A DNA stretch of 24,820 bases from Thermoplasmata archaeon (GTDB lineage Archaea; Thermoplasmatota; Thermoplasmata; SG8-5; JAGLSY01), in NCBI GenBank assembly GCA_023135545.1, contig JAGLSY010000004.1:1-24820 (forward strand), read 5' to 3'. Shown here piece by piece: positions 1,340 through 22,701 of the stretch. Position numbers and translations under genes: made by a program. Position 1 is the first letter of the stretch. Each line of letters starts with the position of its first letter. The notes under the pieces were generated by a model. It saw nothing but the letters and a program-made list of their open reading frames with translations, did no database searches and was not told where the DNA came from.

Positions 1340-1476
1340 AGATGATGGGCACTTGCCACATATGCGGAAGGCCGGCGATGCACAGCTGTTCCAGTTGTGG
1401 AAAAACAATTTGCCGGGAATGTCTGGACATCGGTTCGGGCAGATGCAAGAGCTGCATGGCTGGGAAACAATTTTAA
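1336..1476 (+). CDS. 46-aa Cys-rich microprotein, four CxxC pairs (putative double zinc finger)
   Basis: ATGA overlap with the mptA stop. Translation MKMMGTCHICGRPAMHSCSSCGKTICRECLDIGSGRCKSCMAGKQF; pattern C-x2-C-x7-C-x2-C-x4-C-x2-C-x7-C-x2-C. Below the ORF-track size cut-off. Confidence 0.8.
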   Translation: MKMMGTCHICGRPAMHSCSSCGKTICRECLDIGSGRCKSCMAGKQF

Positions 1477-1478
1477 TT

Positions 1479-1617
1479 CAGTTGGAGAGTTTAGTAAGTT
1501 TTTGGAGTTTATAGAGTTTAATGAGTTAATCTCTGAAGGGTAAGGTCAAAGAATCTGGGCACTCACAAACTCAAGGGTACAGAACCTAGCAACCCAGAAC
1601 TCCTTGAACTCACAGAA
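1479..1617. repeat. Degenerate ~9-nt (G)AGTT tandem repeats in a convergent intergenic region
   Basis: AGTT at 1480, 1488, 1497, 1506, 1515 and 1525 on +. Mirror AACT/AACC units at 1568-1610 read as GAGTT-like on - after the TPR gene stop. Confidence 0.6.
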
Positions 1618-2112
1618 TCAATCAGAAAGAAGGCCCATGGCCTCTTTCTCATCCATGTCCAGGGCCTTCAACATGTAGGTCAAGGACTTCTTTTTTATCA
1701 TTCTCCAGGTGGTGTCATCCAGGAACTTTTCCATTACGATGGGAGCCCTGGTGAAATACGCCATGGCGAACTCTGAAAAATACATGCCGGCATTATCTTC
1801 ATCCAACTCGGTGGCCTTGTTGTAATATTCTTCGGCTTCATTGAATCTTCCGATCTCGGCGCAGAAGGAAGCCAGTGAAGTGACATAGTAAACCTCATCG
1901 GGATCCAGTTCGACGGCTTTCATATAAAGTTCCTGAATCACCTCGGCCTTGACCTTGTGAGCTCCCAGGGATGCTTCGGCCTTCCCGAAATAGGCTTTTG
2001 CGTTCTTGGGGTCCTTCTTTATCACCTCGTTGAATTTCTTCCTGGCCTTCTCGTGCTCGAATTCTGCCAGAAGGATTTGCGCCTTGACCAGTTCATCCTC
2101 GATGGTTGCCAT
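1618..2112 (-). CDS. TPR-repeat protein (164 aa)
   Basis: True start is probably ATG 2112 (GGAGTGA RBS, 4-nt spacer), not 2265. TPR-like units ARKKFNEVIKKDPKNAKAYFGKAEA, LYMKAVELDPD and AEEYYNKATELDEDN. Confidence 0.85.
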   Translation of the reverse strand: MATIEDELVKAQILLAEFEHEKARKKFNEVIKKDPKNAKAYFGKAEASLGAHKVKAEVIQELYMKAVELDPDEVYYVTSLASFCAEIGRFNEAEEYYNKATELDEDNAGMYFSEFAMAYFTRAPIVMEKFLDDTTWRMIKKKSLTYMLKALDMDEKEAMGLLSD

Positions 2113-7107: not shown

Positions 7108-9915
7108 ATGAAAGTGAAATTACTGGCAGTCACTATGACTGCCATGATGATAATGAGTGGGCTAGGGATTATGAGTGTCGGGAGCAATGTAGAAACTAAC
7201 GAAAACTATGGGGCACCAACAAAAACATATGGCTCAGCACCACCCGGCTATGTGCCGCATTCTGTACAGAGAACTGCACTTGCCGAGGATTTTACAGAGT
7301 GGGGCTGCGGCCCTTGTGCGGGTCATAACCCTCAATGGACGGGGGCCATCGATGCGGTTGGGTATGATATTGTGGCTCCGGCATATGTTCACGTATGGTG
7401 GCCGGTGGGAACCGACCCTATATACGCGTATTGCGACGGAGACGGCTCGGTGACCGAGAGGGTTAATTATTACGGGGTTTTAGGTGTTCCAGATACCTTC
7501 CTTGATGGAGGGGATATCGCTACAGGACAAACCCAAGCTGCATATGAAACAGCATTCCAGAACGCGGCAGCAATACCATCCTCAATAATTCTGGACACGT
7601 CAGGGAGCAATATAAATGATGTCTTGCTGGATGGTGTATTGAACCTGCACATAGAAGCATCAGATGCCATTGCCTCTTCAAACCTAAAGGTCTTTGTTTA
7701 CCTCTGGGAAACCAATATTATCAGAGCCCTGGACGGAGATGCACCACCATATCCCAACGGTGAAACAGAATTAGATTGGGCCGTATGGGACATATTACCA
7801 GATGGTGGAACTGGCGACCCGATTTGGCCCGCCGGTGCCAGCCCCGGAGACTGGATCGATGTTTCTTACCCCCTCACACTCGGCGCAGACTGGGTTGCCG
7901 ATGATATCGGATGCACGGTGTTCATTCAGGATACCACAACGAGGGAAGTGTACCAGGCAACTGTCGAGCTTTTCGATAATCAACCCCCGGTAGTATCTCT
8001 GGATACACCAGATTCATACCTCGCTGAACAGGTTCTGGGCGGAACCATTCCGATAACATGGACAGCTACCGATTATGAGGATGATGACACCACACTGGAC
8101 ATATCAATTGATTACAGTGCCGACGGTGGAAACACCTGGATCAACATAATGAGCGGCACGGACAATAATGTCGCGCCCTTCACATTTAACTGGGACACTG
8201 ACGGTATAATCCCAGATGGAATTGGATACAAGCTTCGGGTCAAGGCCCTTGACTCCCTAGGCAACTTCAGATTAGCTACCAGCTCTGAGTGCCTCACCAT
8301 AGACAATATAGCAGATGATGAATGGTACTTCCAGGTGGAATCCACCGGGGCTTTGCAGGACCTGAGCATACAGCCTGCCGAAACCTCCATTAATATTGAG
8401 ACCACCGCGGACATAACGGTCGCAGGCGATTACCAGGTGGGAGCCTGGGAGACCATCCAGACCTTCAGCGGCAAGAGCATCAACGGTGACTGGACCTTCA
8501 GAACATACGGAAAGACGCCTAACCCAGGTCTGGTTGCGTTGGAGGGATATCTTTACGCAAAGGTCTTCTCATCTTCAAACCTGGCAACACCGATTTACAC
8601 GACCGCCCTGGACAACGAGGACGTCGGAACCTTCCAGACATCTCATTTATTTGAATGGACCGAAGCATTGTCCGGTGATATTGTATCCGGAGACAGTCTG
8701 GTGATAGAGATATGGCTTAATGTGGTCGGCGGACCATACACCAGCGGTTACGGTGAGACACTGAACCCCGGCTTTGATACCGATGCCTCATCCTGGGCCT
8801 TCAATATTTGGGTCGATGGTGACGGAAAAGGATTAACTACTGGCAGCTACCAGGCAGCAGGTGGAAATCCCGGCGGATACGTGGATATTTATCTTCCAAA
8901 CCCCCAGGGCAAGCCCAATGATTACTATGAATATTCAGGATATTGGGAGCAATCATTCACCACTGGATTCGTGCCTTATTCCGCCACGCTGTTGGTTGAT
9001 TTCAAATACATTGTACCAAGCGCGGATACAACGACAATAACATACTTTGCATTTGTGGACACTGCACCCGGAACACCGGTATTGGGCACAGAGGTCTGGA
9101 GCACCACCGTCGAGGCCATTACCCCATGGATAACAGTGGAGCCTACTGATTTGAGCCATGTCGTCAATGCAGATACAACCTATTACCTGAAAATGGCCTT
9201 CAAACACGACTCCATAAACATGGGCGAAGGGCCCTGCATTGGCGGATACGACAATATCCAACTGGTCTGGGAGAACTCCTATCCTGTATTCGAGATGGAA
9301 TATGATTATGGCCCGTCACAATCCAATGTTGTTCCAACCATCGGAGTCGGAGTGCCGCCAATAAACTACAATATAGACACCAGCGGAGAATCGGCCAATG
9401 GCTGGGTATTCGTATCCTTCCCGATAACGGCAACTGGACCTGTTACGACGGTCTTCGATGACACATTCTGGGGCGGAGGCGGCGGTACTACATGGGACAT
9501 AATCATGTGGTACGACCCGGCAGATGTCGGTGGAGACCACTGGAAGTCCTACAACAAACTGCAAGAGGCTGCCGGAATTACCCAGGACATGCCAAATGTC
9601 AATAACAGAATGGGCGTGTGGGTGCATCTTCTGACCAATGACAATGCATTGACCATTGGAGAAGGTCAAAACCCAGCAGGTACGACAGTTGACCTGGATA
9701 TCGGCTGGAACCTGGTTGGATACCCATCCCTATCAGGGACATACAGTGCAGGAGACCTGAAGGCCGATTCAGATGATGGTGGAATGCTGATAGAGCGCTT
9801 CAACGATGCCGCAGCATACGACCTTGAATCTATGCCTGATGGAGACAACTTCCTGGCAGGAAATGCCTACTGGGTCTACGCCACTGCAGCATACGGCTGG
9901 ATAGTAGCACCATAA
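7108..9915 (+). CDS. Secreted multidomain protein (935 aa): signal peptide, Omp28-type thioredoxin domain (CGPC) with C-terminal beta-sandwich, Ig/FN3-like domain with Asp-box, beta-rich domains, C-terminal duplicated GW(N/V)xVxxP domain
   Basis: GGAGG RBS; N-terminal signal peptide; RTALAEDFTEWGCGPC...YGVLGVPDTFLDG...VFIQDTTTREVYQA resembles Omp28; SADGGNTW Asp-box at 8107-8139; NGWVFVSFP and IGWNLVGYP repeats; no C-terminal TM. Confidence 0.85.
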   Translation: MKVKLLAVTMTAMMIMSGLGIMSVGSNVETNENYGAPTKTYGSAPPGYVPHSVQRTALAEDFTEWGCGPCAGHNPQWTGAIDAVGYDIVAPAYVHVWWPVGTDPIYAYCDGDGSVTERVNYYGVLGVPDTFLDGGDIATGQTQAAYETAFQNAAAIPSSIILDTSGSNINDVLLDGVLNLHIEASDAIASSNLKVFVYLWETNIIRALDGDAPPYPNGETELDWAVWDILPDGGTGDPIWPAGASPGDWIDVSYPLTLGADWVADDIGCTVFIQDTTTREVYQATVELFDNQPPVVSLDTPDSYLAEQVLGGTIPITWTATDYEDDDTTLDISIDYSADGGNTWINIMSGTDNNVAPFTFNWDTDGIIPDGIGYKLRVKALDSLGNFRLATSSECLTIDNIADDEWYFQVESTGALQDLSIQPAETSINIETTADITVAGDYQVGAWETIQTFSGKSINGDWTFRTYGKTPNPGLVALEGYLYAKVFSSSNLATPIYTTALDNEDVGTFQTSHLFEWTEALSGDIVSGDSLVIEIWLNVVGGPYTSGYGETLNPGFDTDASSWAFNIWVDGDGKGLTTGSYQAAGGNPGGYVDIYLPNPQGKPNDYYEYSGYWEQSFTTGFVPYSATLLVDFKYIVPSADTTTITYFAFVDTAPGTPVLGTEVWSTTVEAITPWITVEPTDLSHVVNADTTYYLKMAFKHDSINMGEGPCIGGYDNIQLVWENSYPVFEMEYDYGPSQSNVVPTIGVGVPPINYNIDTSGESANGWVFVSFPITATGPVTTVFDDTFWGGGGGTTWDIIMWYDPADVGGDHWKSYNKLQEAAGITQDMPNVNNRMGVWVHLLTNDNALTIGEGQNPAGTTVDLDIGWNLVGYPSLSGTYSAGDLKADSDDGGMLIERFNDAAAYDLESMPDGDNFLAGNAYWVYATAAYGWIVAP

Positions 9916-9937
9916 GCCAAACAGGACAAGCCAAAAT

Positions 9938-9974
9938 AGGGAAGGTTAAGTGCCTTCCCTCCATTTCATTTTTG
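9938..9974 (+). terminator. Hairpin plus T-rich tract after the 935-aa gene
   Basis: AGGGAAGG-ttaagtg-CCTTCCCT (8-bp perfect stem, 9938-9960) followed by CCATTTCATTTTTG. Confidence 0.6.
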
Positions 9975-10044
9975 ATTGAACAACCATCATAAACAATATA
10001 GGAAAAAAGAATCACAGTAGCATAAACATATAGAGGGATATAAA

Positions 10045-12765
10045 ATGAAGAAAGCCATTAGCATGATGATTACTGGTATATTATTCACAGCTCTTTTAGT
10101 GAGCGGCGTTGCCCCATTTATGACAGCGCAGCCAGAACCAGAGCAAACGACCGGGATTATGCCTATATACGAGGTTTACATGACACCCGAGCACCCCATC
10201 GGCGCCAGCGACTGGATGGGCGCAACCGAAAAGGTCTCGGGGAACGATGCCGATCAAATTACGCTCCATGTTAAGGCTGACCCCATTGCGAATTGGGCAG
10301 AGGTCAGGACCGGGTTCTGTAATAACAACACCTGTGTGGATGTTTGGGATGAATTCAACCCTTGGTATGAGATGACACATCTTGGCAACGGAGAGTTCGA
10401 ATATGTCTTGCCCGGCGACCACTTAAATGAACTGGATAAATTTTATTTGGCTTCAGAAAGCGACTTGATGTACGTAACTTATCAGATATTGGTGGGAATT
10501 GATCCTAGCTGGGTTGATTATTCATATTATCCTGATTATAACGGTAATGCCCTTGACCTGCAGGACGATGAATATGTTAAATTCTACCCCACCTGGGCAC
10601 CGACCCAGACAAATGCCACCAGCCAGGTTTCCAAAGCTGTGTTGTATCCTGGAGAGACCTTCTGGGTGAACGGTACGTCCAATTACTGGAACAGCACGTC
10701 CTATCCTGGTGATTACTCGAAGCTGATTCCGGTTTCACAAACCAACGTAACTGTTTCATTCAATCCCTCCCAGACCATTAAGACCGATGATAATGGAAAT
10801 TATTCATTCCAGTTCACGGCCCCCCTGGCCCCCAGCACTTACATGGTGAACACCACCTTGACCAATAATACACCAAACTGGAACGGTAACCAAACTAGAA
10901 ACGTGCCGTGTGTTTCCCCTGAAACTCAAATTGAGGTCCTGGACTTCGATATTGAGGTCAACGCCGTGCCCAATGCCACCTACCCGAACAAGGACATTTC
11001 CGTGAATGGAGATGTGCTTTGGGGGGATGCCAGTGCAGTTACCACAGGCTCTCCGGTCAGCATATCCATTGTCGAAACTGGCGATTCCTGGAACACGAAC
11101 ACTAACGCGGCCGGCCATTATGACCAGACCATCACGGTTCCGGGCATTGCCCAAGCATACACAATTCAAGTTGAGGTTGATGACACAGCCACTGGCCATG
11201 TCAATACCAATCAGACCGAGTTGACCGTGAGAACTCCATCAATGATGCTTTCAGTTGAGGCCAGTTCCTCCACAACCCTTCCAGACCAGACCTTGACAAT
11301 GACCGGCCATGCAGAATACGGAAATAGCGATATCGCAGACAGCTGCGAGGTCAACATAACAATTGACGGAGAGACCGGATACTGGAACGGTACGACAGAT
11401 GTAAATGGCAACTATTCCATCAACATAACCACGCCATTGACCGTCGGAAACTACACGGTGAATGCCACGGTCGAAAGCACCCTGTACGGAATAAGCGACG
11501 AGGAACAAACCGATATTCAAGTGGTGGCAGTGCCCGTGCCAGATCTCACGATAGTGGCCAGTTCGGTGACCATAACCGCCCCTGATGGAATGTTCGAGGG
11601 CGAGGAAGTCAACTTCACTGCGATGGTGAAGAATGTTGGTATAGCCAACGCGACCGATGTTCTCGTCAGCTTCCTGGTGGATGGGGTTGAAGTTGATAAT
11701 GAAACAGTTGATCTTCTGATCGGCGCAAATACCACAATCACGGTAACATGGCCGGCAGTTGCAGGGAATCATACTCTTAACATATCGGCGGACCCGGAAA
11801 ACACAATTACAGAGTCATTCGAGAACAACAATGTAGCCACCAAGGCCTTCGACATAGACATGGACACGGACGGCGACGGAATAGGCGACCTTACTGACCC
11901 GGATATTGATGGAGATGGCTACAACAACACCGATGATGATTTCCCGGAGGATGCGACAGAGTGGCTGGACTCGGATGAAGATGGAGAAGGTGACAACGCA
12001 GATACCGATGACGATGGCGACGGCGTGCCGGATGTCGATGACGACTTCCCGCTGGACCCCACTGAGGACACGGACACAGATGATGATGGGGTTGGTGACA
12101 ATGCAGACACAGATGATGATGGCGACGGGGTGCTTGATGTCGATGATGCCTTCCCGCTGGATGATGCTGAAACAGCCGATTATGATGGGGATGGAATAGG
12201 CGACAATGCCGACCCGGATGATGATGAGGACGGCTACCTGGACGCTTCCGAGGACCCCGAGCTGTGGGACACGGACAATGACGGATTGACCAATGACATC
12301 GACAATGACGATGACAATGATGGGACACTTGACACCTCAGATACCATGCCCCTTGACACCGACAATGACGGCCTGACCAATGCCGAGGACGATGATGACG
12401 ATGGGGATGGGGTTCTAGATAAGGATGAGGACCTGAACTGGAACGGCATTGTCGATGATAATGAGACCAGTCCTACAAACTCGGACACGGATGGGGATGG
12501 GGTGGATGACAAGGAGGACTATGATCCACTGGACCCCGAGGTCAGCCTGAGCTCGGACGTGAATGATGGTGATGGTGGCTTGATCATCTTTGGCATTGTA
12601 GGCATAGTTCTTATAGTCGCAGCCATCTTGGGAATGATGATGATGTCCAAGGGCAAGGGCCCGGGTAATACTGGAACAGAAGAAACCGAGCCAGAAGCCA
12701 AAGAAGATACTGCTGCAACTGAATCAGCCGAGGCCCCGGAGACACCAGTCAACAAGACCGATTAA
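10045..12765 (+). CDS. Membrane-anchored surface protein (906 aa): signal peptide, C-x4-C domain, Ig-like repeats, CARDB domain, thrombospondin type-3 Ca-binding repeats, C-terminal TM, acidic tail
   Basis: MKKAISMMITGILFTALLVSGVAP signal; TDDNGNYS/TNAAGHYD/TDVNGNYS Ig repeats; PDLTI...VKNVG...ADPENTITESFENNN (CARDB); DxDxDGxGD repeats; TM GGLIIFGIVGIVLIVAAILGMMMM. Confidence 0.88.
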   Translation: MKKAISMMITGILFTALLVSGVAPFMTAQPEPEQTTGIMPIYEVYMTPEHPIGASDWMGATEKVSGNDADQITLHVKADPIANWAEVRTGFCNNNTCVDVWDEFNPWYEMTHLGNGEFEYVLPGDHLNELDKFYLASESDLMYVTYQILVGIDPSWVDYSYYPDYNGNALDLQDDEYVKFYPTWAPTQTNATSQVSKAVLYPGETFWVNGTSNYWNSTSYPGDYSKLIPVSQTNVTVSFNPSQTIKTDDNGNYSFQFTAPLAPSTYMVNTTLTNNTPNWNGNQTRNVPCVSPETQIEVLDFDIEVNAVPNATYPNKDISVNGDVLWGDASAVTTGSPVSISIVETGDSWNTNTNAAGHYDQTITVPGIAQAYTIQVEVDDTATGHVNTNQTELTVRTPSMMLSVEASSSTTLPDQTLTMTGHAEYGNSDIADSCEVNITIDGETGYWNGTTDVNGNYSINITTPLTVGNYTVNATVESTLYGISDEEQTDIQVVAVPVPDLTIVASSVTITAPDGMFEGEEVNFTAMVKNVGIANATDVLVSFLVDGVEVDNETVDLLIGANTTITVTWPAVAGNHTLNISADPENTITESFENNNVATKAFDIDMDTDGDGIGDLTDPDIDGDGYNNTDDDFPEDATEWLDSDEDGEGDNADTDDDGDGVPDVDDDFPLDPTEDTDTDDDGVGDNADTDDDGDGVLDVDDAFPLDDAETADYDGDGIGDNADPDDDEDGYLDASEDPELWDTDNDGLTNDIDNDDDNDGTLDTSDTMPLDTDNDGLTNAEDDDDDGDGVLDKDEDLNWNGIVDDNETSPTNSDTDGDGVDDKEDYDPLDPEVSLSSDVNDGDGGLIIFGIVGIVLIVAAILGMMMMSKGKGPGNTGTEETEPEAKEDTAATESAEAPETPVNKTD
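11851..12537 (+). repeat. Asp-rich thrombospondin type-3-like repeat tract
   Basis: Repeated D(T/M/Y)D(G/D/N)DG..(D/N) and D.FP.D units. Confidence 0.9.
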
Positions 12766-12774
12766 GGTAATAAT

Positions 12775-15729
12775 ATGCAGCTGGCCACCTATCGTAGGAC
12801 CTCACAGATCGCCTTCCTAGTGCTTACACTGGCCGGGATACTCTTCGGCCTCAGTGCGACCGGAATAATATATCCCTACTTCTTCTGCTACTCATGTCCC
12901 TGGGATATCGGGGCATGTCCAATCGGGATACTGGAACACTCGGTCATCGACATACAGATAGAGGGATTGTTCTGGACGGGCATGGCAATGCTGGGATTCC
13001 TTATCGGATTCATGGTCCTGATTGGCATGATATTCGGAAGAGGCTTCTGCGGCTGGGGCTGCCCGGTGGGTGCCCTGCAGGATGTGACACGAAAGACCGG
13101 CATTGGTAAGTTCCTCAACAAGAAGATAGGAGGGGAGATCGACCACCGTGTCAAGTACATCAAGTATCTGATTTTGATATCCATTCCCATCCTGTCCTAC
13201 TGGGCCAAGGACCTGTTCTATACCACCTTCTGCCCGGTCGGCGGAATAACCGGGACTGTTCCCACCCTGACATTCTACTTTTCTGAATGGACGCTAGGAA
13301 CCACCTTCCCTATCAAGATTACCTCCATCGTGCTTTTCGTGATACTTATCCTCCTGGTCGTTAGGGGATGGTGCAAGTATCTGTGCCCGGTCGGAGCATT
13401 CCTGGCCCCCTTGAATTACAAGGCTGGTGTGAACCTTTCAAGAAAGGAAGAGACATGTGCCAACTGTAATCTCTGCGAGCGGGCCTGCCCAATGGACGTG
13501 AAGGGCATGGGAAGGCATGAGGATGCGGAGTGCATTCTCTGCGGCAGGTGCGTGGATGTTTGCCGACACAAATCACTAAAACTGGGTTCGAGATTTGCCA
13601 AGGGAAGGATGGTTGGTTTCCTGCCCTGGATAATCGTAATCATACTGGCATCCAGTCTAATGATCTCCGGGGCCTATTACAGTGGATATGAAAGGGTGGA
13701 TGCAATAAACGCCATTCCCTGTCTGGGATGCCTGGCCCTTGACCCTGTCAGCCCCGATGACTGGTTCTTTTACGATGAGGATACAAACACCCATCAGCAA
13801 TTCGTGCTGGATGACCTCGAAAGCGGCCCTGTATTCCTCCACTATCGAACCATCGTGTGCGCGGCATGCGATGAGATGGAGCCTTACATCGAAGAACTTG
13901 AAGAGGACTACGGCAACCGGATAAAATTCATCCACATAAACCTGGACCTGGCACCCGAGGATGAGGTAGCCAGTTACTACGATTATGATATCCTGGGCAC
14001 GCCGGATGACACCTCCGGGGTTCCGCTCTTCGCCATCGTGACACTCAACGAGACGGCAGATGGAAATGTCCCGATTTTCAAGTCGGTCTACGGCTCGTCC
14101 AGTGATGGCGGCAGGTCCAAGAAGGGCGACCTGGAGAAAGTGATTGTGAACGCTACGGCCATGTACCAGGAGGTTGCCGGCTCCATCGTGATAATCGACT
14201 CGGAGAAGATGCCGATGGTAGAGCTCTTCGTTGATATGAACTGTGTCTGGTGCCCTTCCTCGGAGGATGCACTGGTCGAGCTGGAGCATGAGGGCATCAC
14301 GAACTACATCACCTACACAACCGATGTCGTCGGCGTGTCTGGCAATTATTCGACTTACAGGGAGATTGAACATCAGGGCTCGATTAACGGGTTGACAGCG
14401 AGCCAGGGCCATCCCTGGGCCGTGTTCAACGGCGGGCCAATCAACAACCTGGGTGGAGGAGGCGGGATAAAAGATGATTATCTGGTGGATCTGGCTGTGT
14501 CAGGTTATTCACCGGTAAATCTCTCCATCGACGGAACCCTAGGTGAGGAATCACAGAACCTCCAGGCCAGCATCACCCTTTCCAATCCTGATGAGGTAAG
14601 TCAATCGATTGATGTGAAGGCCATGCTGGTCGAAAAGATATCACAATTTCCCAACATCCGCGGAGACCCAATACCCAATGCCTTCATTGACATTCTGGTG
14701 AACCAGACCTATGATATCGGTTCCGGTGAAACCGAGGCAATCAATGTCACCTGGGATGGGACAGATGTGTTACCTTATTCGGATTTCAGGCTGAGCAATC
14801 TGGCCCTTGTGGTTTCGGCATGGGAGGATGGAGTTCTAATAAACTCGAAGACCATCGATGCCGGAATCGAGGAGGCCCTGCTCTGGGAAGTGGATGATGA
14901 CCATCTGTCAGTCCGGCCCAACACCACCGCCTATGTCGAACTCACCTTGTGGAATTATCTGGATTCTGAATTGACAGTAAACCTCTCGGCCATCGTGCCA
15001 AATGCCAATTGGGTCGTCAACCTTTCGGCGGACAATGCAACAATTCCGGCACTGGGCTCCCATACCATAACCGCAGATATAACCAACTCGGATACCGCAC
15101 TGGGCGATTTGGCAGAGATCAGGATCAGGGCCAGGGGTGTCATCGACTCGACGGTTGACATAAGCCGGAAGATTGAAATCGTCGTGAAAGACGACATACT
15201 GCCGCCTACAATAGCATCTTCGGATTACGAGCCCCGTGAGCCGCTGGCCACCGACCAGATTAACATGTCCGCCATGATTGGCGATCTGTCGCCGCTCAAA
15301 TCCGTCAAGCTACTTTACTACTCCTGCACCGACGAGGTCTGCTCCCCAACTTTCGAACTGAACATGACCACCCAGGATGGGAACACCTACACGGCCAGTG
15401 CCTTCCCTGTCGAGGTCGAGCACAACATATTCCACTACAAGATCATAGCTACTGACGAGGCCGACAATGTTCAGGAATCGGAATGGTACGATGTGGAGCT
15501 GGAGCCAGTCCTTCCGCCGGAGCATCATCAGGGCGGTGATACAGGCACTTTCAACACCTTCGGAATCGCCGGCCTTCTGATATTCGCCATGGTGGCCATC
15601 GGCCTCAATATTGCCAGGATAAAGCAGAACCCAAAGAAAAAAATTGAGAAAAAGGAAGATGAAGAAGAAATTTCCAAAGAGCCAGATGTGGAATCTTTGG
15701 AAGAAGTTGCCCCAAACACAAAGCAATGA
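12775..15729 (+). CDS. Fusion protein (984 aa): NapH/MauN/CcoG-type 4-TM polyferredoxin with 2x[4Fe-4S], TM, CxxC linker, thioredoxin domain, Omp28-type thioredoxin domain, Ig-like stalk, C-terminal TM
   Basis: CYSCP..GACPIG (C38); GRGFCGWGCPVG, FCPVG and RGWCKYLCPVGA; ferredoxin motifs CANCNLCERAC (C228) and CILCGRCVDVC (C253); TM aa ~279-302; CLGC (C316); CAAC (C362) with GVP; CVWC (C490) with GHP; TM aa ~929-947. Gap of 9 nt from the upstream gene. Confidence 0.9.
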   Translation: MQLATYRRTSQIAFLVLTLAGILFGLSATGIIYPYFFCYSCPWDIGACPIGILEHSVIDIQIEGLFWTGMAMLGFLIGFMVLIGMIFGRGFCGWGCPVGALQDVTRKTGIGKFLNKKIGGEIDHRVKYIKYLILISIPILSYWAKDLFYTTFCPVGGITGTVPTLTFYFSEWTLGTTFPIKITSIVLFVILILLVVRGWCKYLCPVGAFLAPLNYKAGVNLSRKEETCANCNLCERACPMDVKGMGRHEDAECILCGRCVDVCRHKSLKLGSRFAKGRMVGFLPWIIVIILASSLMISGAYYSGYERVDAINAIPCLGCLALDPVSPDDWFFYDEDTNTHQQFVLDDLESGPVFLHYRTIVCAACDEMEPYIEELEEDYGNRIKFIHINLDLAPEDEVASYYDYDILGTPDDTSGVPLFAIVTLNETADGNVPIFKSVYGSSSDGGRSKKGDLEKVIVNATAMYQEVAGSIVIIDSEKMPMVELFVDMNCVWCPSSEDALVELEHEGITNYITYTTDVVGVSGNYSTYREIEHQGSINGLTASQGHPWAVFNGGPINNLGGGGGIKDDYLVDLAVSGYSPVNLSIDGTLGEESQNLQASITLSNPDEVSQSIDVKAMLVEKISQFPNIRGDPIPNAFIDILVNQTYDIGSGETEAINVTWDGTDVLPYSDFRLSNLALVVSAWEDGVLINSKTIDAGIEEALLWEVDDDHLSVRPNTTAYVELTLWNYLDSELTVNLSAIVPNANWVVNLSADNATIPALGSHTITADITNSDTALGDLAEIRIRARGVIDSTVDISRKIEIVVKDDILPPTIASSDYEPREPLATDQINMSAMIGDLSPLKSVKLLYYSCTDEVCSPTFELNMTTQDGNTYTASAFPVEVEHNIFHYKIIATDEADNVQESEWYDVELEPVLPPEHHQGGDTGTFNTFGIAGLLIFAMVAIGLNIARIKQNPKKKIEKKEDEEEISKEPDVESLEEVAPNTKQ

Positions 15730-15902: not shown

Positions 15903-16667
15903 TCAGATAAAGAATAAAGCCGCCATCACCAGTATCCCGCCGAAGCAGATCATCATTATACCAGAGAATTTTTGAATCCGGAGAAGCCTCGTCATCTGTT
16001 TCTCCTTGTCGGCCAGTGTTGTACTGAAGGACGCAATAAGTACGGATGGAAGGGCAGTCCCAAGGCCGAATATGAAGAAGGCCAGACCGCCTAACACCGC
16101 CCCAACAATCGGGCTGGTCGCCAACTCTGCCGTGAATATTCCGACAAAGATGGTCTCGATGGCCAGCACGGTCTCGCCGATGCAGGCGATGCTGACAAGG
16201 CCCCCCCACAAAAAAAGGCCTGTCCTGGTCTTCGGGGTAACCATGTCGAACCTGGCCAGCAATGGATGGAGCATGCCATTATCGCATGCTCCGTTTTCAT
16301 CACCTCTGGGTTCATCCGGCTCTTCCAGACGCTCGGAAATTGTTGCAAAAATGAAGGTGCCGTAGACTATCATCAAGCACCCGACTATGCCGTAGCCAGC
16401 CGCCCAGATCGTCGAGCCGACCGCGAATTCCTCCACTCCTTCGCGGATGATATAGCCTCCGGCGCCGATGGCCGCCCCCAGCAAGGTCAGCAATAACACT
16501 CTGGGCGCGTTGAACCACAGTGCTATTTTTAGTCCTTTTTTCCAAGTTCCGCGCTCCTCGACCAGTGTCGGCATAATGGATGGTATGCAGAGTGCCAGGC
16601 ATGAGCTGGCTCCCCTTCTTATCCCCCATAAAAAGCCGATTGACAGGGCGCCGAGTATCGTTAACAT
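15903..16667 (-). CDS. DsbD_2/TauE-SafE-like (CcdA-related) polytopic membrane protein
   Basis: AGGAGA RBS; about 6 TM helices; C-x3-C (SSCLALCIP) in TM1, FNAPRVLLLTLLGA..G..G, SIACIGE in TM4, and GLGTALP motifs fit the DsbD_2 family. Confidence 0.75.
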   Translation of the reverse strand: MLTILGALSIGFLWGIRRGASSCLALCIPSIMPTLVEERGTWKKGLKIALWFNAPRVLLLTLLGAAIGAGGYIIREGVEEFAVGSTIWAAGYGIVGCLMIVYGTFIFATISERLEEPDEPRGDENGACDNGMLHPLLARFDMVTPKTRTGLFLWGGLVSIACIGETVLAIETIFVGIFTAELATSPIVGAVLGGLAFFIFGLGTALPSVLIASFSTTLADKEKQMTRLLRIQKFSGIMMICFGGILVMAALFFI

Positions 16668-16882: not shown

Positions 16883-16965
16883 ACTGAGCGTTCTCTGCCA
16901 TTTTGCAGTAAGGGAAAAATATATGATTGTATATTGTTTTTCATTTGAATGGGAGAGGTACTTGG

Positions 16966-19416
16966 TTGTCAGCTGAAGAAAGTTCTATTATCGGGACATT
17001 ATCATTGCCCGAAGCTCACAAAGAGCAATTTCTCTGGCACGTCATCATTTGGTTGGAAATCCTTCTCATAATCATGGTGGTTATATCCTCTGGCTTGAAT
17101 GAATGGGCTGATATTCAATCAAAGGTCTTCAACATCGCCTTTGTGGGTGTTCTCATAATCTCTTTTATAATTGGTCTGGGGCTTTTTATGGCCTACAAAC
17201 CGAAGGTCGAAAAACAAGGGATCCTTATATTCCTCCTATTTCTTACTGGCTGTCAGATCATATCCAGTGGAACAATGCTCTACCAGCTTGGGAGATCCGA
17301 GACCGTGGAATTCATCATCATTATATTGACTGGCCTAGCGATCGCCGCCCTGGGATTGGGATTGATGATGCTCAAGCTCAAGCACACAAGCAGAATGACT
17401 GGCTTCTATTCATTGTGGTTGTTCGGCATACTGCTGATCCTTTTTATGCCCCTTCACGAACTCGAAATGCTGGAATACAGTAGCAGGGATAACTTGATGG
17501 GCTATCTTGGCCTGATAATCACAATCATTGGATCGCTATCCTTTTCCATCGAATATAGACAAAGCAAGAATTTTGAAGCTTGGGTCATCTCGGGGGATGC
17601 GAAGTACATTGCTGGGAAATACGACAAGGCAGTGGAATATTACGAAAAGGCCCTGGCCATTGATGGGGAGAATGCCCTCATATTGTCCAGCAAAGGTTCG
17701 GCACTTCTGAGATTGAGCATGTGGTCCAGAGCATTGGAATGCTTCGATAGGGCTCTGGAATTTGAGCCCGAACAGGCCCTGGCTATCGGGGGAAAGGGTC
17801 TCGCATTAAGCTATTTGAAACGATATTCAGAGGCTCTTACATATCATGATCTGTCCATCAAGGTGGGCCGGGAAGCGGTCGGGTGGAACAATAAGGGCAA
17901 TACCCTCTTCCGCATGAATGCGCCGAATGATGAGATAATGACATGTTATGAAAACGCCATTATAGCAGAGCCAGATTATTCAAATGCATGGTTTAACAAG
18001 GGTAAGTCCGAATTGAATCAGGGTTGGTATGAGAAGGCAGCGGATTCCTTCGCAAGGGTCGTGGAACTGAGGCCTGATTTCTCGGCTGCCTGGTTCCAGA
18101 GAGGTAAATCCCTTTCATTATCCGGATCAAAGGAGGAGGCCCTGTTCTGTCATGACATGGCCATACAACTCAATCCCGCAAACACCGAGGCCTGGATGGA
18201 AAGAAAGATCATACTTGTATCCTCGGTAAAGAAGAAGATGAGACCGATACCGGTCATCACCATCACGGATGGCATGCCCATCTTTGGACCGGATGGCCAA
18301 AAGAGGAAGATGATACCGGCCACACTTCCTGAAAAGGTGGATAGAGGAGTGTCTGGAGATGATACGGGACGTCAGAAGGCGATCGTCTTGGCGAGCCGAG
18401 GTAATTATGATGGGGCGATCAATATGCTCCAGAAACAAATAGCCAAAGAGCCGGAAGATACTGTTAATTACATCACCCAAGGAATGATGATGACGCGAAT
18501 GGAGAGACTGGATGAGGCTTTGGAATCATTTGAAAAGGCAATTCAGATACAGCCAGACTGGGTCGGACCCTGGTTCTGCAAGGGAATGGTACTGGCGGCA
18601 ATGAACAGGTATGACGAGGCCGTCGTGGCACTGGACAAGGCCATCTCCCTAAGGTACAACTACACAGATGCCTGGTCTGTGAAAGGATTGATATATGGGA
18701 TCCTTCGCAGATATCAAGAGGCGATTGAATGCTTTGACAAAGTTACCGAGTTACACCCGGATGATGAAGAGGCCTGGCGGTCAAAGGGAATTGCACTGAA
18801 CAAGCTGGGTCGATATGAGGAGGCCATCCAGTGCTTTGAGAATATAGTGCTCCTCAAGCCGGGCATAGACGGTATATACACATTCCTGGATGAAGAAAAG
18901 GATAAGCTCCAGGATGCCAGGGACATGTTCAAGGTTGGAGTCGAATTGGCAAAGTTAAGAGAATATGATTCTGCAATAGAATTCCTGGAGAAGGCCGTGA
19001 AACTCAGACCAAACTATATGGAAGCCCTGTATATTTTCGGTGTCGTGTACGGTGTTATAGGAGATTATGAAAATGCTATGCGTTATTTCGAGAGGGTGCT
19101 GGAAATAAAGCCGGAACATATTGAAGCTCTCTATGCAAAGGGAAATATCCTGCTCAAGGAGGGGAAGAATTCCGAAGCCCTTGAATTCTTCAAGAACGTG
19201 CTGGACCTGAAAGAAAGCCATGTGGATGCCTGGTGTGATAAAGGCCAGGCATTCGTTGGACTGGGTGAATATGATAGCGCGGTGGAGTGTTTTGATAATG
19301 CCCTGAGGCAGTCTGGAGATCATCAGAGAAGCATATCTTCAAGGGAGAGCTGTGTCAAACTAATGAATTTGATGGAAGAGAGTGGGGAAAAAGAAGAGGA
19401 TATGGTCTTACCGTAA
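16966..19416 (+). CDS. Membrane protein with ~6 N-terminal TM helices and ~15 TPR repeats in two blocks
   Basis: Likely TTG start at 16966 after GGAGAGGT (ORF track starts at 16927). Hydrophobic N-terminal ~200 aa, then repeated AW..KG..L..L..Y.EA..C(F/Y)..A....P units. Confidence 0.88.
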   Translation: MSAEESSIIGTLSLPEAHKEQFLWHVIIWLEILLIIMVVISSGLNEWADIQSKVFNIAFVGVLIISFIIGLGLFMAYKPKVEKQGILIFLLFLTGCQIISSGTMLYQLGRSETVEFIIIILTGLAIAALGLGLMMLKLKHTSRMTGFYSLWLFGILLILFMPLHELEMLEYSSRDNLMGYLGLIITIIGSLSFSIEYRQSKNFEAWVISGDAKYIAGKYDKAVEYYEKALAIDGENALILSSKGSALLRLSMWSRALECFDRALEFEPEQALAIGGKGLALSYLKRYSEALTYHDLSIKVGREAVGWNNKGNTLFRMNAPNDEIMTCYENAIIAEPDYSNAWFNKGKSELNQGWYEKAADSFARVVELRPDFSAAWFQRGKSLSLSGSKEEALFCHDMAIQLNPANTEAWMERKIILVSSVKKKMRPIPVITITDGMPIFGPDGQKRKMIPATLPEKVDRGVSGDDTGRQKAIVLASRGNYDGAINMLQKQIAKEPEDTVNYITQGMMMTRMERLDEALESFEKAIQIQPDWVGPWFCKGMVLAAMNRYDEAVVALDKAISLRYNYTDAWSVKGLIYGILRRYQEAIECFDKVTELHPDDEEAWRSKGIALNKLGRYEEAIQCFENIVLLKPGIDGIYTFLDEEKDKLQDARDMFKVGVELAKLREYDSAIEFLEKAVKLRPNYMEALYIFGVVYGVIGDYENAMRYFERVLEIKPEHIEALYAKGNILLKEGKNSEALEFFKNVLDLKESHVDAWCDKGQAFVGLGEYDSAVECFDNALRQSGDHQRSISSRESCVKLMNLMEESGEKEEDMVLP

Positions 19417-19489: not shown

Positions 19490-19879
19490 TCAAAGAATTT
19501 CCACTGTGCCTTCGTCCGCGTCTATTCTCAGTCTGTCGCCGGTCTTTATCTTATCGATGTCTATGCCGTCAACACATGTGACATCGGCCAGTATAACACC
19601 TGTAGCCACTATTGTCTCGGTCTCCTTGTTGATGATGGCCGCCGGGCCGACACCGTATTTCTCAAGCCCGTAAATGACATAGGAGCCCACCGTCGAGCCC
19701 TTGCCGCACGGGAATATCAGCACCTTGCCGGTTACCGACTGGCCTTCTAATTCATGGCCTTTCTCGATAACTATTCCGGTCTTGGGATCGATGCCGCCGT
19801 AAAATCCGATAGGCTCTCTGGATACTATGGCCTCGGCCTCCACCTTTCCGGGGTTTATCATCCTGCCTTCCATCTTCAT
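19490..19879 (-). CDS. acnX: Aconitase X swivel subunit (DUF126); probable phosphomevalonate dehydratase small subunit
   Basis: FYGGIDPKTG and GKGSTVGSYV motifs; ATGA overlap with the large-subunit gene. Confidence 0.92.
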   Translation of the reverse strand: MKMEGRMINPGKVEAEAIVSREPIGFYGGIDPKTGIVIEKGHELEGQSVTGKVLIFPCGKGSTVGSYVIYGLEKYGVGPAAIINKETETIVATGVILADVTCVDGIDIDKIKTGDRLRIDADEGTVEIL

Positions 19880-21084
19880 GCCGACAACCTCCTAATTAAT
19901 TCATCCACATCTTGGAATACAACATTCTGCTGGCAGAATCCAGGCAGGTAATTTCCGGCCTTACCGGAGTTAACGCCGGTCGTTTTGTAGCCCATTTCCT
20001 CGATCGGGGAAACGACCATGCAGGTATCGGCCACGACCTTGCCGCCGGCTTTTTCGATAATCTCGACGAAGCCCATCTTCTGGGCCGCGACCTTCATCAC
20101 CCTGGAGGTGCATATCCAGATGGGGCTTTTCAGAGCCTTGCCGTCCAGCTTTTCCGCCAGGCTGGCAATCTCGCGCAGGGAGGCGTGTGGACAGCCCAGT
20201 ATCACGATGTCGGGTATCGAGCCGGTGTTCAGCTTTTCGTAGGTGGCGGCCAGCTCCTTCTTGCCGACCTCTATGGGCTCGAGACCGGACACATCCATGA
20301 GATATGCTTCGGGTGTCAGACCCTCGGCATGATAAAGAGCCACGGCCCCGGATGCGGCCATCGCGGCACCCAGCGCCTTCAGCTGGTCGGTGTTGGAATC
20401 TTTCGGAAGGCCGATAAAATAAGGAATTTTATTCTTCACTTGCTTGCCAACATGATAGCCCAGGGCTCCGAAGTCAGAATTGAAATTGAGGTCTGTATCT
20501 ACTTTCACGACGACGTCCGGCTTCCGATTTTCATCTTGATGAAGCCCATAGTTGGGAGTCACCCCGCAAATAGCTGCGGCCAGTGCCGAAGGACCTCCTT
20601 CCCTGTTGGTCCTGGCCCCGATAACCGAGTTGGAGAATGACACGGCCGAAGATTCTGACCAGGCTATGTGCTCCCCGAACCTCGGGAGGTTGCCGGCCAG
20701 GTAAGGCGTGCATGTCGCGGTCACAACTACACCCATCTTCCTGAAGGCCTCCATGATTCTTATCTGGTGGCTGGCAAAGTCCTCTGGAAAACCATATTCC
20801 TTCCAGTCCTCCATGTCCATCCCGGCCGGATTCAGGTAGGTGAGGGTTTTCACCCTGGCCCCCTTGGCCGCGAAGTCCTCCAGGAACTCCATTCCAGGGT
20901 CGCCGATTGATTTGTAAGATACCCCGGCAACCTGAACGCTGCCGACCGGTATCATCTTCCCGGCCCCGTAAATGTCTCCCAGGCGGACGAGCAATCGAAA
21001 GAGCCGCTCAACGACCTCTCCCTGCTCACCAGCCAGCATGCCCTCCTGCTCTGGTGTTAAATCGATTTTATCAACTCCCTGCAA
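19876..21084 (-). CDS. acnX: Aconitase X catalytic subunit (DUF521); probable phosphomevalonate dehydratase large subunit
   Basis: GVSYKSIG, TCTPY, WSESSAVSFSNSVIGARTNREGGPSALAAA, GCPHAS, DTCMVVSP and NSGKA motifs. Start is uncertain: TTG 21084 (no RBS) or ATC 21066 (good RBS). Confidence 0.92.
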   Translation of the reverse strand: MQGVDKIDLTPEQEGMLAGEQGEVVERLFRLLVRLGDIYGAGKMIPVGSVQVAGVSYKSIGDPGMEFLEDFAAKGARVKTLTYLNPAGMDMEDWKEYGFPEDFASHQIRIMEAFRKMGVVVTATCTPYLAGNLPRFGEHIAWSESSAVSFSNSVIGARTNREGGPSALAAAICGVTPNYGLHQDENRKPDVVVKVDTDLNFNSDFGALGYHVGKQVKNKIPYFIGLPKDSNTDQLKALGAAMAASGAVALYHAEGLTPEAYLMDVSGLEPIEVGKKELAATYEKLNTGSIPDIVILGCPHASLREIASLAEKLDGKALKSPIWICTSRVMKVAAQKMGFVEIIEKAGGKVVADTCMVVSPIEEMGYKTTGVNSGKAGNYLPGFCQQNVVFQDVDELIRRLSA

Positions 21085-21374
21085 TTCGCTATCAAAATGT
21101 CAATCTCATCCTTTGTCGCGTTGTCAACATGGACACCGCCCAGGGCAACCACCTTTGTCTGGTATTTTTCGCAGGCTTCAACAGCGATGGGCTCCAGGAC
21201 AACATGGTCATAATGGCCTTCCAGTTTCATGGTCCGGCATTCTTCCCCCGGTATCTTGAGCACCACGGAGCCGATGTGGGATTTTTCCCCGCCGCCGAGA
21301 ATGTAGACGAGCTGGTTTCCCACCTCCTCGCGCTTGAGCCAGACCCGGTACTTGCCATCACCCGCGGTAATCAT
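21057..21374 (-). CDS. lpdD: LpdD-like prenylated-flavin (prFMN) chaperone
   Basis: ILGGGEKSHIG, GHYD and GGVHVDNATKDEI correspond to the GG..PHIG / H(K/R)D / GIH(V/I)..IT..EI pattern I recall for LpdD. Overlaps both neighbouring genes. Confidence 0.7.
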   Translation of the reverse strand: MITAGDGKYRVWLKREEVGNQLVYILGGGEKSHIGSVVLKIPGEECRTMKLEGHYDHVVLEPIAVEACEKYQTKVVALGGVHVDNATKDEIDILIANCRELIKSI

Positions 21375-22671: not shown

Positions 22672-22701
22672 ATATATCACTCCCGTTATGGTAGGATAAG
22701 T

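Follow-up and report, generated by a model that had tools for sequence, protein, structure and literature searches.

Gene organization and membrane topology

The window, that is, the whole stretch of DNA analyzed here (24,820 nucleotides of a Thermoplasmata archaeon), contains a gene for a fusion protein (P0001) in which a membrane polyferredoxin, a CxxC linker, two thioredoxin-fold domains, beta-sandwich domains, and a transmembrane (TM) anchor are joined in one chain (Table 1). The open reading frame starts with ATG, and the upstream gene ends 10 nt before it. All motifs named in an earlier note on this DNA were located in this frame.

Table 1. Features of the fusion gene and neighboring genes, with positions in the window
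Feature	Position	Strand	Basis or remark
Operon gene A, secreted 935-aa protein with N-terminal Omp28-like thioredoxin-fold domain (WGCGPC)	7108..9915	+	Profile comparison
Operon gene B, 906-aa CARDB / acidic-repeat surface protein with C-terminal TM	10045..12765	+	PF07705, E 3e-19
Whole fusion gene P0001	12775..15729	+	984 aa; NapH-like / CxxC linker / Trx / Omp28-like Trx / beta-sandwich / TM anchor
NapH/MauN-like membrane polyferredoxin module, aa 1-278 (TM1-TM4)	12775..13608	+	TIGR02163, NF007013, two Fer4_5 stretches
Outer loop 1 motif CYSCPWDIGACPIG (Cys38, 41, 48; CYSCP..CP, aa 38-49)	12886..12927	+	Cys conservation; predicted interface
First cytoplasmic Cx3CP motif RGFCGWGCPVG (Cys92/96; RGFCGWGCP 89-97)	13039..13071	+	Motif, conservation
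Outer loop 2 motif FCPVGG (Cys153; FCP 152-154)	13228..13245	+	Conservation in fused, split, and mini forms
Second cytoplasmic Cx3CP motif RGWCKYLCPVG (Cys200/204; RGWCKYLCP 197-205)	13363..13395	+	Motif, conservation
Two ferredoxin-type [4Fe-4S] motifs (Cys228-238, Cys253-263)	13456..13563	+	Fer4, Fer4_7, Fer4_10 matches
TM5 and juxtamembrane helix ending PCLGCLALDP (Cys316/319), CD1871A-like segment	13609..13746	+	Invariant C-L-x-C; hhalign
Thioredoxin domain 1 (Cys362-A-A-Cys365; cis-Pro loop G415-V-P417)	13777..14184	+	PF00085; predicted fold
Thioredoxin-fold domain 2 (Cys490-V-W-Cys493) with attached beta-sandwich, Omp28-like	14206..14874	+	hhalign; weak PDB profile match
Beta-sandwich (Ig/Fn3-like) domain	14875..15189	+	All-beta, pLDDT 84-92; Foldseek matches to Ig/Fn3 arrays
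C-terminal beta-sandwich, invariant Cys851/Cys856	15208..15504	+	Separate small gene in 'mini' loci
TM6 anchor (929-947) and charged cytoplasmic tail (KKKIEKK...)	15559..15729	+	Hydropathy, AlphaFold model, charge count
Divergent DsbD/CcdA-superfamily membrane protein, 254 aa (invariant C23xxxC27, C162)	15903..16667	-	DsbD_2 / DsbD_TM in orthologues

The neighbors of the fusion gene encode surface proteins, a DsbD-like protein, a TPR protein, and enzymes of the mevalonate pathway, and no napA/napG, mau, nos, or rdh genes were found near it. Gene B lies directly upstream of the fusion in all fused loci that extend far enough to include this position. The DsbD-like gene is convergent and lies 174 nt downstream, and in the distant relatives L020 and L021 it lies on the same strand within the operon. 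DsbD_2 was matched by three of six of its orthologues and DsbD_TM by four of six, and a profile search for solved structures with this protein found none. The fusion protein itself had no match to the DsbD-type transmembrane domains PF02683/PF13386. Additionally, mcrA was not found in the source genome (74% complete), which leaves no link between the system and methanogenesis.

Hydropathy analysis gave five strong helices (residues 14-32, 69-87, 178-196, 279-297, and 929-947; KD 2.2-2.8) and a weak one (125-144; KD 0.98), which is a helix in the AlphaFold model and the counterpart of NapH TM3. The short outer loops contained one K/R in 69 residues versus 32 in 169 residues of the inner segments, so that the predicted topology agrees with the positive-inside rule; it also matches the experimentally determined topology of NapH. 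The six-helix topology of the earlier note is thus consistent with these data, with the caveat that TM3 is weak by hydropathy alone. That note had also counted about ten outer N-x-S/T sequons, and 12 of the 13 in the protein do lie in the 631-aa ectodomain; however, this enrichment is not significant (Fisher p = 0.48), and the sequons are therefore no evidence for the topology. Confidence is low in the membrane part of the AlphaFold model (pLDDT 33-80), and Foldseek with the full-length model returned only Ig/Fn3 arrays, with no information on the redox parts. No archaeosortase signal or PGF-CTERM was matched at the C-terminus. Small Ig-TM proteins encoded in the 'mini' loci described below showed PGF-CTERM/archaeosortase hints that were insignificant.

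NapH-like module and its cysteine motifs

The N-terminal 278 residues are NapH/MauN-like, in line with the earlier note, and matched TIGR02163 (E 1e-25, 90.7 bits; curated cut-off 213) and NF007013 (E 9e-24, 84 bits; curated cut-off 234), as well as Fer4_5 twice. Judging from these profile scores, the module is a relative of the NapH/MauN family and not a member. The hallmarks of NapH are present, including four TM helices, Cx3CP motifs after TM2 and TM4, and two C-terminal [4Fe-4S] motifs of the form CxxCxxCxxxC (228-238, followed by Pro, and 253-263). All eight cysteines of the latter are invariant in 24 homologues, as are all 16 cytoplasmic-face cysteines, Cys153, and the three CxxC pairs of the ectodomain.

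Nearly all cysteines of the protein are fully or almost fully conserved in these homologues, and the outer cysteines showed a graded pattern. Cys38 and Cys48 are nearly invariant in the 24 homologues and are retained by every relative compared, bacterial ones among them. Cys41, the second cysteine of CYSCP, is kept in most relatives, with Asn or Ser in its place in L005, L024, and L025. Cys153 is invariant across the fused, split, and mini forms and is kept wherever a CxxC-thioredoxin or TlpA-like partner adjoins, whereas five Thermoplasmatota NapH-like relatives without a co-oriented adjacent partner gene (L023, L025, L028, L030, and L032) have Asp at this position. Among the sequences compared, Cys153 thus covaries with the presence of an adjacent partner. 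The source genome also has a second NapH-like gene, which is without the outer cysteines and has unrelated neighbors.

CxxC helix and thioredoxin-fold ectodomain

TM5 with its PCLGC end had been likened to the CD1871A peptide. A direct hmmscan of residues 275-330 with the CD1871A model (NF040920; cut-off 32 bits, with true members scoring 45-68 bits) gave no match at E <= 10. In contrast, a profile-profile comparison with CD1871A peptides (hhalign) gave a probability of 86.6% (E 4.5e-6), and its score of 26.8 exceeded the maximum of 19.4 obtained in 120 column shuffles, so that the likeness was recovered between profiles but not by the direct search. CD1871A peptides consist of one TM helix and a short linker helix before a C-terminal C-[LMT]-E-C-[IV]-G-x-G. 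The TM helix, linker, and C-L-G-C-L of the fusion protein lie in CD1871A register, but here the motif is followed by further chain rather than ending it, and Gly/Ser stands where the peptides have Glu.

Of the two thioredoxins proposed in the earlier note, domain 1 matched PF00085 when excised (E 4.5e-5, 23.8 bits; cut-off 23.5), and its C362, C365, and G415-V-P417 are invariant in the 24 homologues. Its model has a pLDDT of about 90 and matched thioredoxins (TMt about 0.7) and PDI in Foldseek, and the domain shows the thioredoxin hallmarks of a CxxC at the start of a helix, a cis-Pro loop, and a beta-alpha-beta fold. Domain 2 had no direct Pfam or NCBIfam match and was recognized only through profile comparison and predicted fold, being paralogous to the N-terminus of gene A (hhalign 93.2%, E 3e-7, 191 columns) and giving a weak PDB profile match to 2axo. 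This comparison also supports the Omp28 link suggested earlier, and the L020 orthologue of gene A matches NF045500 (E 1e-16). The Omp28 models (PF11551, NF045500, and NF033782) were neither among the listed matches for pieces of the fusion protein nor among the 25 families most widely matched by the 24 homologues. BLASTP of the fusion protein against gene A gave nothing significant, and the kinship is visible at the profile level only. The C-terminal beta-sandwich matched the product of positions 3692-4162 of L027 by BLASTP (E 1e-6).

Distribution of fused, split, and bacterial forms

At least 24 full-length homologues (41-71% identity) were found in Thermoplasmatota, and contigs of up to 956 kb from independent samples carry the same architecture. 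The fusion is therefore conserved in related genomes, and an assembly chimera, the concern raised at the outset, is ruled out. The single-chain form is present in the window and 10 loci, whereas in other Thermoplasmatota a split form consists of two overlapping genes (L019-L022) and a 'mini' form of three genes with 4-nt overlaps (L027 and L029). These split and minimal versions of the same parts bear out the Rosetta-stone reasoning of the earlier note.

The Firmicutes locus described there was found as well. In this bacterial module, a NapH-like protein with the same outer CxxCP..CPxG is encoded alongside a TlpA-like redoxin and a peptide of the CD1871A family (NF040920, E 7e-14), and the peptide adjoins this NapH-like protein in 14 of 15 loci. 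Bacillota fusions of Fer4_5 and Redoxin superpose on residues 1-455 of a homologue of the fusion protein (TM 0.59-0.67). As an architecture class, Fer4_5 + redoxin fusions are common in databases, where thousands are unannotated; nevertheless, our literature search found no characterized member of it and no paper describing the module. The hosts of the module are Thermoplasmatota MAGs, gut Clostridia, and Treponema.

Several candidates were set aside. In the Clostridia loci L047-L088 from a pattern scan, the match was confined to the ferredoxin motif of hydrogenase-like proteins (checked on L069), and these loci were dropped; L036 (Bipolaricaulaceae), which has a different NapH-like type, was left out. 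Short 'peptides' among the representative matches (P0176, P0150, and others) seem to be truncated gene calls, not stand-alone CxxC peptides.

Predicted complex of the split pair

For the split pair of L027, the predicted complex reached an ipSAE of 0.61 versus 0.00 for the best of three controls. Of solved complexes, 55 of 80 attain this mark, as do 3 of 110 mismatched pairs; the score is the model's own confidence, and neighboring genes pass in 7 of 44 blind cases. The predicted interface includes every outer cysteine of the NapH-like chain and the CLSC pair of its partner, and none of the cytoplasmic cysteines.

Proposed electron conduit and alternatives

Taken together, these results suggest that P0001 serves as a single-chain transmembrane electron conduit, fed by Fe-S clusters, to surface thiol-disulfide relays, and we put the probability of this reading at roughly 0.55. 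The protein unites in one chain all parts of a module that is split elsewhere, namely the NapH-like protein, the CxxC helix of CD1871A type, and the extracytoplasmic thioredoxin, and this gene set, in its fused and split forms, probably carries reducing power across the membrane. The donor, the outward reductive flow, the sequence of relay steps, and the end substrate are inferred as follows. A low-potential cytoplasmic donor, probably ferredoxin, would pass electrons to the two [4Fe-4S] clusters and two Cx3CP motifs at the cytoplasmic face, and electrons would pass through the NapH-like four-helix module to Cys38/41/48 and Cys153 at the outer face. These cysteines would reduce Cys316/Cys319 on helix 5 by thiol-disulfide exchange, and this pair would in turn reduce the CAAC of thioredoxin domain 1, which may hand on to the CVWC of the Omp28-like domain 2, the secreted CGPC protein of the operon, or surface substrates. 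Ferredoxin-type clusters have low potentials, and disulfide reduction outward is therefore thermodynamically downhill. We know of no mechanism by which one-electron Fe-S centers on one membrane face reduce cysteines on the other. Moreover, part of the system could in truth draw its thiol electrons through the product of the linked DsbD-superfamily gene, so that the DsbD-independent route of the earlier note is only a possibility. NapH-like modules have been described as modular conduits that carry electrons through the membrane to redox domains outside the cytosol (Meheust et al. 2021, PMC8238504), and the function of the Cx3CP motif is unexplained even in NapH, NosR, and RdhC (Buttet et al. 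2018, PMC5928378).

The direction of flow could also be reversed, and we regard this as unlikely. P0001 would then oxidize surface thiols, like DsbB and VKOR-thioredoxin fusions, and send electrons inward to a quinone-like or cytoplasmic acceptor, with the DsbD-like neighbor as the opposing reductive/isomerase branch. VKOR-thioredoxin fusions are a precedent for a membrane redox module joined to an outward thioredoxin, the DsbD-like gene is linked as in organisms running both branches, and the large surface proteins of the operon are possible clients. In addition, NapH is considered to be a subunit that interacts with quinol (PMC8238504, PMC5928378). However, the step from thiols (about -200 mV) to ferredoxin-type clusters would be uphill unless the cluster potential is unusually high. 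Moreover, the bacterial partners are TlpA/ResA-like and thus of the reductive class, the secreted partner has a reducing-type CGPC motif, and all the hosts named above are anaerobes.

The gathering of six conserved cysteines at the predicted outer interface speaks for another reading, similar to FTR or Hdr and in our estimate quite improbable, in which Cys38, 41, 48, and 153 bind an extra Fe-S cluster or metal ion beside the Cys316-Cys319 disulfide, which this center would reduce in one-electron steps like FTR, or in which the site reduces or handles a metal, e.g., Cu(II), as has been reported for the related CcoG. The active site of FTR also has six cysteines, the four helix-capping 'CPxG' motifs are mutually alike, suggesting a common cofactor-binding role, and the CcoG model gave a weak match in all 24 homologues (best E 9.5e-12). 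On the other hand, the replacement of Cys41 in the three loci noted above argues against a bound cofactor, the operon is without metal-handling genes, and P0001 lacks a twin-arginine signal context; no machinery is known to us for placing Fe-S clusters in the extracytoplasmic loops of a protein inserted by Sec. NosR had iron for two [4Fe-4S] clusters and no more, as cited in PMC5928378.

A purely structural linkage, with the NapH-like module as a scaffold or sensor for a surface-protein complex and the thioredoxin domains reduced by the DsbD-like neighbor or non-catalytic, would suit a locus that sits among Ig-like/CARDB surface proteins in both archaeal forms and has the DsbD-like gene within the operon in L020 and L021, but it is very improbable given redox cysteines invariant down to 41% identity, bacterial module loci without a DsbD-like gene, the covariation of Cys153 with its partner, and selenocysteine-containing relatives of the Omp28-like domain (NCBIfam family), which indicate catalysis.

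The electron conduit remains our preferred reading. To our knowledge, DsbD/CcdA-type proteins are the only established prokaryotic route by which reducing equivalents reach thiol enzymes outside the cytoplasmic membrane, and extracytoplasmic thiol redox control in archaea is largely uncharted. If the conduit is real, modules of the P0001 type would provide a second route to outward thioredoxins, tied to ferredoxin-based anaerobic metabolism, and the Cx3CP motifs of the NapH/NosR/RdhC family would gain a function. More tentatively, the CYSCP-type NapH-like module and the CxxC helix might represent a third, Fe-S-driven class of transmembrane disulfide reductases beside DsbD/CcdA, common to anaerobic Bacteria and Archaea and drawing on the ferredoxin pool, not on NADPH, TrxR, and Trx, with P0001 as its complete single-chain form. 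The archaeal single chain fixes the stoichiometry and the order of the parts, and P0001 is therefore convenient for cryo-EM and proteoliposome assays.

Comparison with known systems

NapH, NosR, and RdhC (PceC) share with P0001 the four-helix membrane core and two cytoplasmic Cx3CP motifs (PMC8238504; PMC5928378), and the two C-terminal [4Fe-4S] motifs are found in NapH and NosR. In these proteins, as in P0001, the core is joined by fusion or coupling to a redox domain outside the cytoplasm, and electrons are presumed to cross the membrane. Their outward partner is a flavinylated FMN-binding domain or NapG, whereas that of P0001 is the CxxC helix with thioredoxin-fold domains. The conserved outer-loop cysteines (CxxCP..CPxG and FCP) are an addition of P0001 relative to canonical NapH, which presumably, as in the E. 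coli sequence, has Asp/Asn-Pro in their place.

The DsbD/CcdA/ScsB proteins, which serve TlpA/ResA/CcmG, have the same job as that proposed here, namely the delivery of cytoplasmic reducing equivalents to extracytoplasmic thioredoxin-fold proteins, and DsbD likewise joins a membrane core to an outward thioredoxin-fold domain. However, the core of DsbD is a two-cysteine thiol shuttle fed by cytoplasmic thioredoxin, whereas that of P0001 has another fold and Fe-S clusters. The DsbD pathway is represented beside P0001 by the separate divergent gene, and both may cooperate rather than replace each other. Disulfide reductases of the FTR and HdrB types, in which an Fe-S center reduces a disulfide and this in turn reduces thioredoxin, are a conceptual parallel only, being soluble, cytoplasmic or stromal proteins for which no sequence or fold kinship to P0001 was found.

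A further comparison is with the bacterial three-gene module, in which the homologous NapH-like part is 30-35% identical across 80-90% of the module and, as in P0001, a single helix is followed by C-L-x-C in register and accompanied by an extracytoplasmic thioredoxin fold. In P0001, these parts form one chain in the order NapH, CxxC helix, and Trx, the C-L-x-C is internal instead of a C-terminal tail, and the thioredoxin is not of the TlpA/AhpC-TSA type. In addition, P0001 has the Omp28-like domain, the beta-sandwich domains, and a second anchor, and it belongs to an archaeal host, in a locus linked to large surface proteins.

Architecture and predicted topology of the fusion

The 984-aa fusion is encoded by a single unbroken ORF that starts 10 nt past the stop of the preceding gene. 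Five strong helices were predicted by hydropathy (residues 14-32, 69-87, 178-196, 279-297, and 929-947), along with a weaker one at 125-144, which the AlphaFold model also shows as a helix and which is the counterpart of the third helix of NapH-type proteins. With the N-terminus inside, Lys and Arg occupied 1 of the 69 residues of the two short outer loops and 32 of the 169 residues of the inner segments. In this topology, the RGxCxxxCP pair, the two [4Fe-4S] motifs, and the basic tail lie inside, and CYSCP..CP, FCP, CLGC, CAAC, CVWC, and an acidic 631-residue ectodomain lie outside. The assignment of these motifs to the two sides, proposed in the earlier note, thus agrees with the helices and the Lys/Arg distribution. 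Twelve of the 13 sequons were also located in the outer part, an enrichment that was not significant (p = 0.48).

Residues 1-278 matched NapH/MauN models (TIGR02163, E 1e-25; NF007013, E 9e-24), and Pfam identified two Fer4_5 stretches plus ferredoxin motifs. Since both model scores were far under the curated cut-offs, this module is a relative of NapH and not NapH itself. Residues ~335-470 form a thioredoxin domain (PF00085, 23.8 bits for the excised piece versus a cut-off of 23.5), in which Cys362, Cys365, and the cis-proline loop Gly415-Val-Pro417 are all invariant. When residues 325-600 were modelled separately (mean pLDDT 83), two consecutive thioredoxin-like beta-alpha-beta units were predicted, and the model matched thioredoxins, PDI b'-a', and an archaeal protein disulfide oxidoreductase.

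The second unit and its attached beta-sandwich gave no direct family match. At the profile level, this region aligned with the N-terminal domain of gene A, the first gene of the operon (93.2% probability, E 3e-7), with ELFVDxxCxxC over EDFTxWxCxPC and GHPW over GVP. Because a gene A orthologue matched the model for 'Omp28-related selenoprotein' (E 1e-16), the Omp28 label suggested earlier holds transitively. The remainder of the ectodomain is beta-sandwich, and its last domain carries an invariant Cys851/Cys856 pair followed by the membrane anchor.

Coordinates and sizes of features in the window and in the compared loci
Locus	Feature	Position	Strand	Description
Window	Operon gene A	7108-9915	+	First operon gene; secreted, 935 aa
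Window	Fusion	12775-15729	+	984 aa
Window	DsbD-like gene	15903-16667	-	254 aa; weakly DsbD/CcdA superfamily
Window	829-aa protein gene	16927-19416	+	Directly beyond the DsbD-like gene
Window	AcnX-like, LpdD-like, UbiD-like, GHMP-kinase-like gene block	19490-22680	-	Judged from syntenic locus L004
L002 (same genome, contig C84)	Second NapH-like gene	1273-2046		257 aa
L020	DsbD-like gene	3071-3781		Same strand, inside operon
L021	DsbD-like gene	4992-5705		Same strand, inside operon
L025 (Thermoplasmata)	Asp153 NapH-like gene and convergent TM-CLGC-Trx-like gene	7986-10556		
L027, L029	NapH-like protein gene			270 aa
L027, L029	TM-LCLSC-Trx protein gene			206-209 aa
L027, L029	Gene for Ig-like domain with Cys pair and TM	3692-4162 (L027), 7519-8004 (L029)		156-161 aa; fusion's C-terminal domain and anchor

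Homologues and gene arrangements

We found 24 full-length homologues of the fusion (930-1021 aa, identity 41-71%) in NCBI, JGI, ENA, and Logan assemblies, on contigs of up to 956 kb; they belong to Thermoplasmatota, as judged from species-representative genomes. Nearly all 24 cysteines of the fusion were invariant or nearly so, and Cys41 was kept only in most homologues. An assembly chimera, the concern raised in the earlier note, is ruled out by this recurrence in assemblies from independent sources.

The one-chain form was present in the window and ten other loci. Three loci (L019, L020, and L021) had a two-gene form with an 8-nt overlap, in which a 278-aa NapH-like protein is followed by a 601-638-aa chain starting with a TM helix and PCLGC; two overlapping genes were likewise seen in L022, whose contig is truncated. 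Two further loci (L027 and L029) had a three-gene form with 4-nt overlaps, and L024 and L031 had a pair of NapH-like and TM-LCLSC-Trx genes. The small Ig-like proteins of the three-gene form have an ECKGxQC pair and end in TPGYG or TPGFE, a TM helix, and basic residues; this end resembles PGF-CTERM archaeosortase signals, with matches that were not significant. The same domain is fused in the window protein, with a 37-aa tail in place of the TPGYG/TPGFE-type end.

A TM-CxxC-Trx profile search of 1.84 billion representative proteins yielded 76 clusters at E<=1e-10. Most of these were ~200 aa and stand-alone, indicating that the fusion is a rare, derived state. One such stand-alone partner follows a NapH-like gene, and its neighbours include a TlpA-like redoxin and surface proteins with Ig domains.

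Bacterial three-gene module

Bacterial relatives of the NapH-like module numbered in the hundreds (identity 30-35%). Two Clostridia loci encode, in order, a TlpA/ResA-like redoxin, a peptide of 44-48 aa, and a NapH-like protein; the peptides matched NF040920, 'CD1871A family CXXC motif-containing protein' (E 7e-14 and 5e-12), and the NapH-like protein has in its outer loop NCYSCPGALGACPIG, the motif seen in the archaea as FCYSCPWDIGACPIG. The same three genes were present in a Treponema relative (32% identity to the archaeal module by BLASTP). The Firmicutes locus described in the first reading of the sequence is therefore real. The CD1871A peptide was detected in 12 of 151 genomes sampled from one Clostridia order. 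A CYSCP-type NapH-like gene directly adjoined it in 14 of 15 bacterial loci, with a thioredoxin-like domain fused to the NapH-like protein in 3 of the 14. L104, L106, and L107 (Clostridia) showed another permutation of the parts: a membrane protein of 266-271 aa carries the CD1871A-type tail at its end, and fusion with a thioredoxin-like domain makes the NapH-like protein 484-494 aa long. In the ESM Atlas, residues 1-455 of a fusion homologue superposed on several Bacillota Fer4_5+Redoxin fusion clusters (TM 0.59-0.67).

The proposed equivalence of TM5 plus AINAIPCLGCLAL to the CD1871A peptide was upheld in part. The segment did not match the CD1871A family HMM, but when profiles of 14 archaeal segments and 15 CD1871A peptides were compared, 40 columns aligned without gaps and with the CLxC residues matched (86.6% probability); the score was 26.8, and none of 120 column-shuffled controls scored above 19.4.

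Proposed electron path and alternatives

Covariation and a predicted complex both suggest that the parts work together. Outer-loop Cys153 (FCPVGG) was conserved in every case with a fused or adjacent CxxC-Trx or TlpA-like partner. Five Thermoplasmatota NapH-like proteins had Asp instead; four of them had no partner nearby, and the fifth (L025) had only a convergently oriented one. In L025, a thioredoxin-reductase-like flavoprotein gene comes after the TM-CLGC-Trx-like gene, and this variant may be supplied by TrxR instead of an outer Cys relay. For the split pair of L027, the predicted complex reached an ipSAE of 0.61, which is the model's own confidence rather than a measurement, versus 0.00 for the best of three controls; 55 of 80 solved complexes attained this mark, as did 3 of 110 mismatched pairs. 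The predicted interface contains all outer cysteines of the NapH-like chain and the partner's CLSC pair, together with residues on either side of the thioredoxin active site; the 12 cytoplasmic cysteines all lie outside it.

The best-supported reading is an outward path from Fe-S clusters to thioredoxins. The ferredoxin-type clusters and Cx3CP motifs on the cytoplasmic side would send electrons across the NapH-like core to the outer cysteines, from which thiol-disulfide exchange via Cys316/319 would carry them to the thioredoxin domains; the operon's secreted CGPC protein or substrates at the surface are likely end points. As the function of the Cx3CP motif is not known even in NapH, NosR, and RdhC (PMC5928378), the transmembrane step is one that we infer. 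The outward direction is suggested by the low potential of ferredoxin-type clusters, the TlpA/ResA-type bacterial partners, and the anaerobic hosts; the same wire run inward, as a DsbB/VKOR-like oxidase, still stands as an alternative. So does FTR-like or metal-centred chemistry at the six outer cysteines.

In a further alternative that still stands, the association of the parts is structural only and the redox work is done by the neighbouring DsbD-like protein. DsbD_2 was identified in three of six orthologues of this protein (best E 7e-10), C23xxxC27-x-P and C162-x-G-E are invariant, and a profile of the six orthologues found no solved structure. In the window and three more fused loci the gene is convergent, some loci lack it, and L020 and L021 carry it within the operon. 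Given this linkage of a DsbD/CcdA-superfamily gene, the DsbD-independent route claimed in the earlier note is not established. No DsbD-like gene was found at the bacterial loci examined, suggesting that the NapH-like route probably does not need one; in these archaea the two may cooperate.

Other genes

Gene A encodes WGCGPC in an N-terminal domain that is paralogous to the second thioredoxin-fold domain of the fusion, and its distant orthologues match the 'Omp28-related selenoprotein' model. Its product is likely a mobile or terminal redox partner. The second NapH-like gene of the genome lacks any outer cysteines, adjoins polyferredoxin-like and flavodiiron-like genes, and is probably part of a different system. 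The 829-aa protein combines a multi-helix membrane region at its N-terminus with at least 12 TPR repeats, and no clear counterpart was found in L010, the sole syntenic locus checked downstream. The minus-strand gene block is read as the archaeal modified mevalonate pathway, not as evidence for quinone synthesis.

Comparison with known systems

A full-text literature search turned up no publication on CD1871A or on a NapH-like-to-thioredoxin system. The window contributes the archaeal branch of the module and its complete form in one chain, the Cys153 covariation, an Omp28-like second domain with a paralogue in the same operon, and a link of the module to large surface proteins. NapH-like conduits and transmembrane thiol-reducing pathways are already known in kind. 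In the published view, NapH-like proteins are modular conduits feeding extracytosolic FMN-binding domains (PMC8238504); the proposed outward path would extend this view, with the thioredoxin of the fusion replacing the flavin domain.
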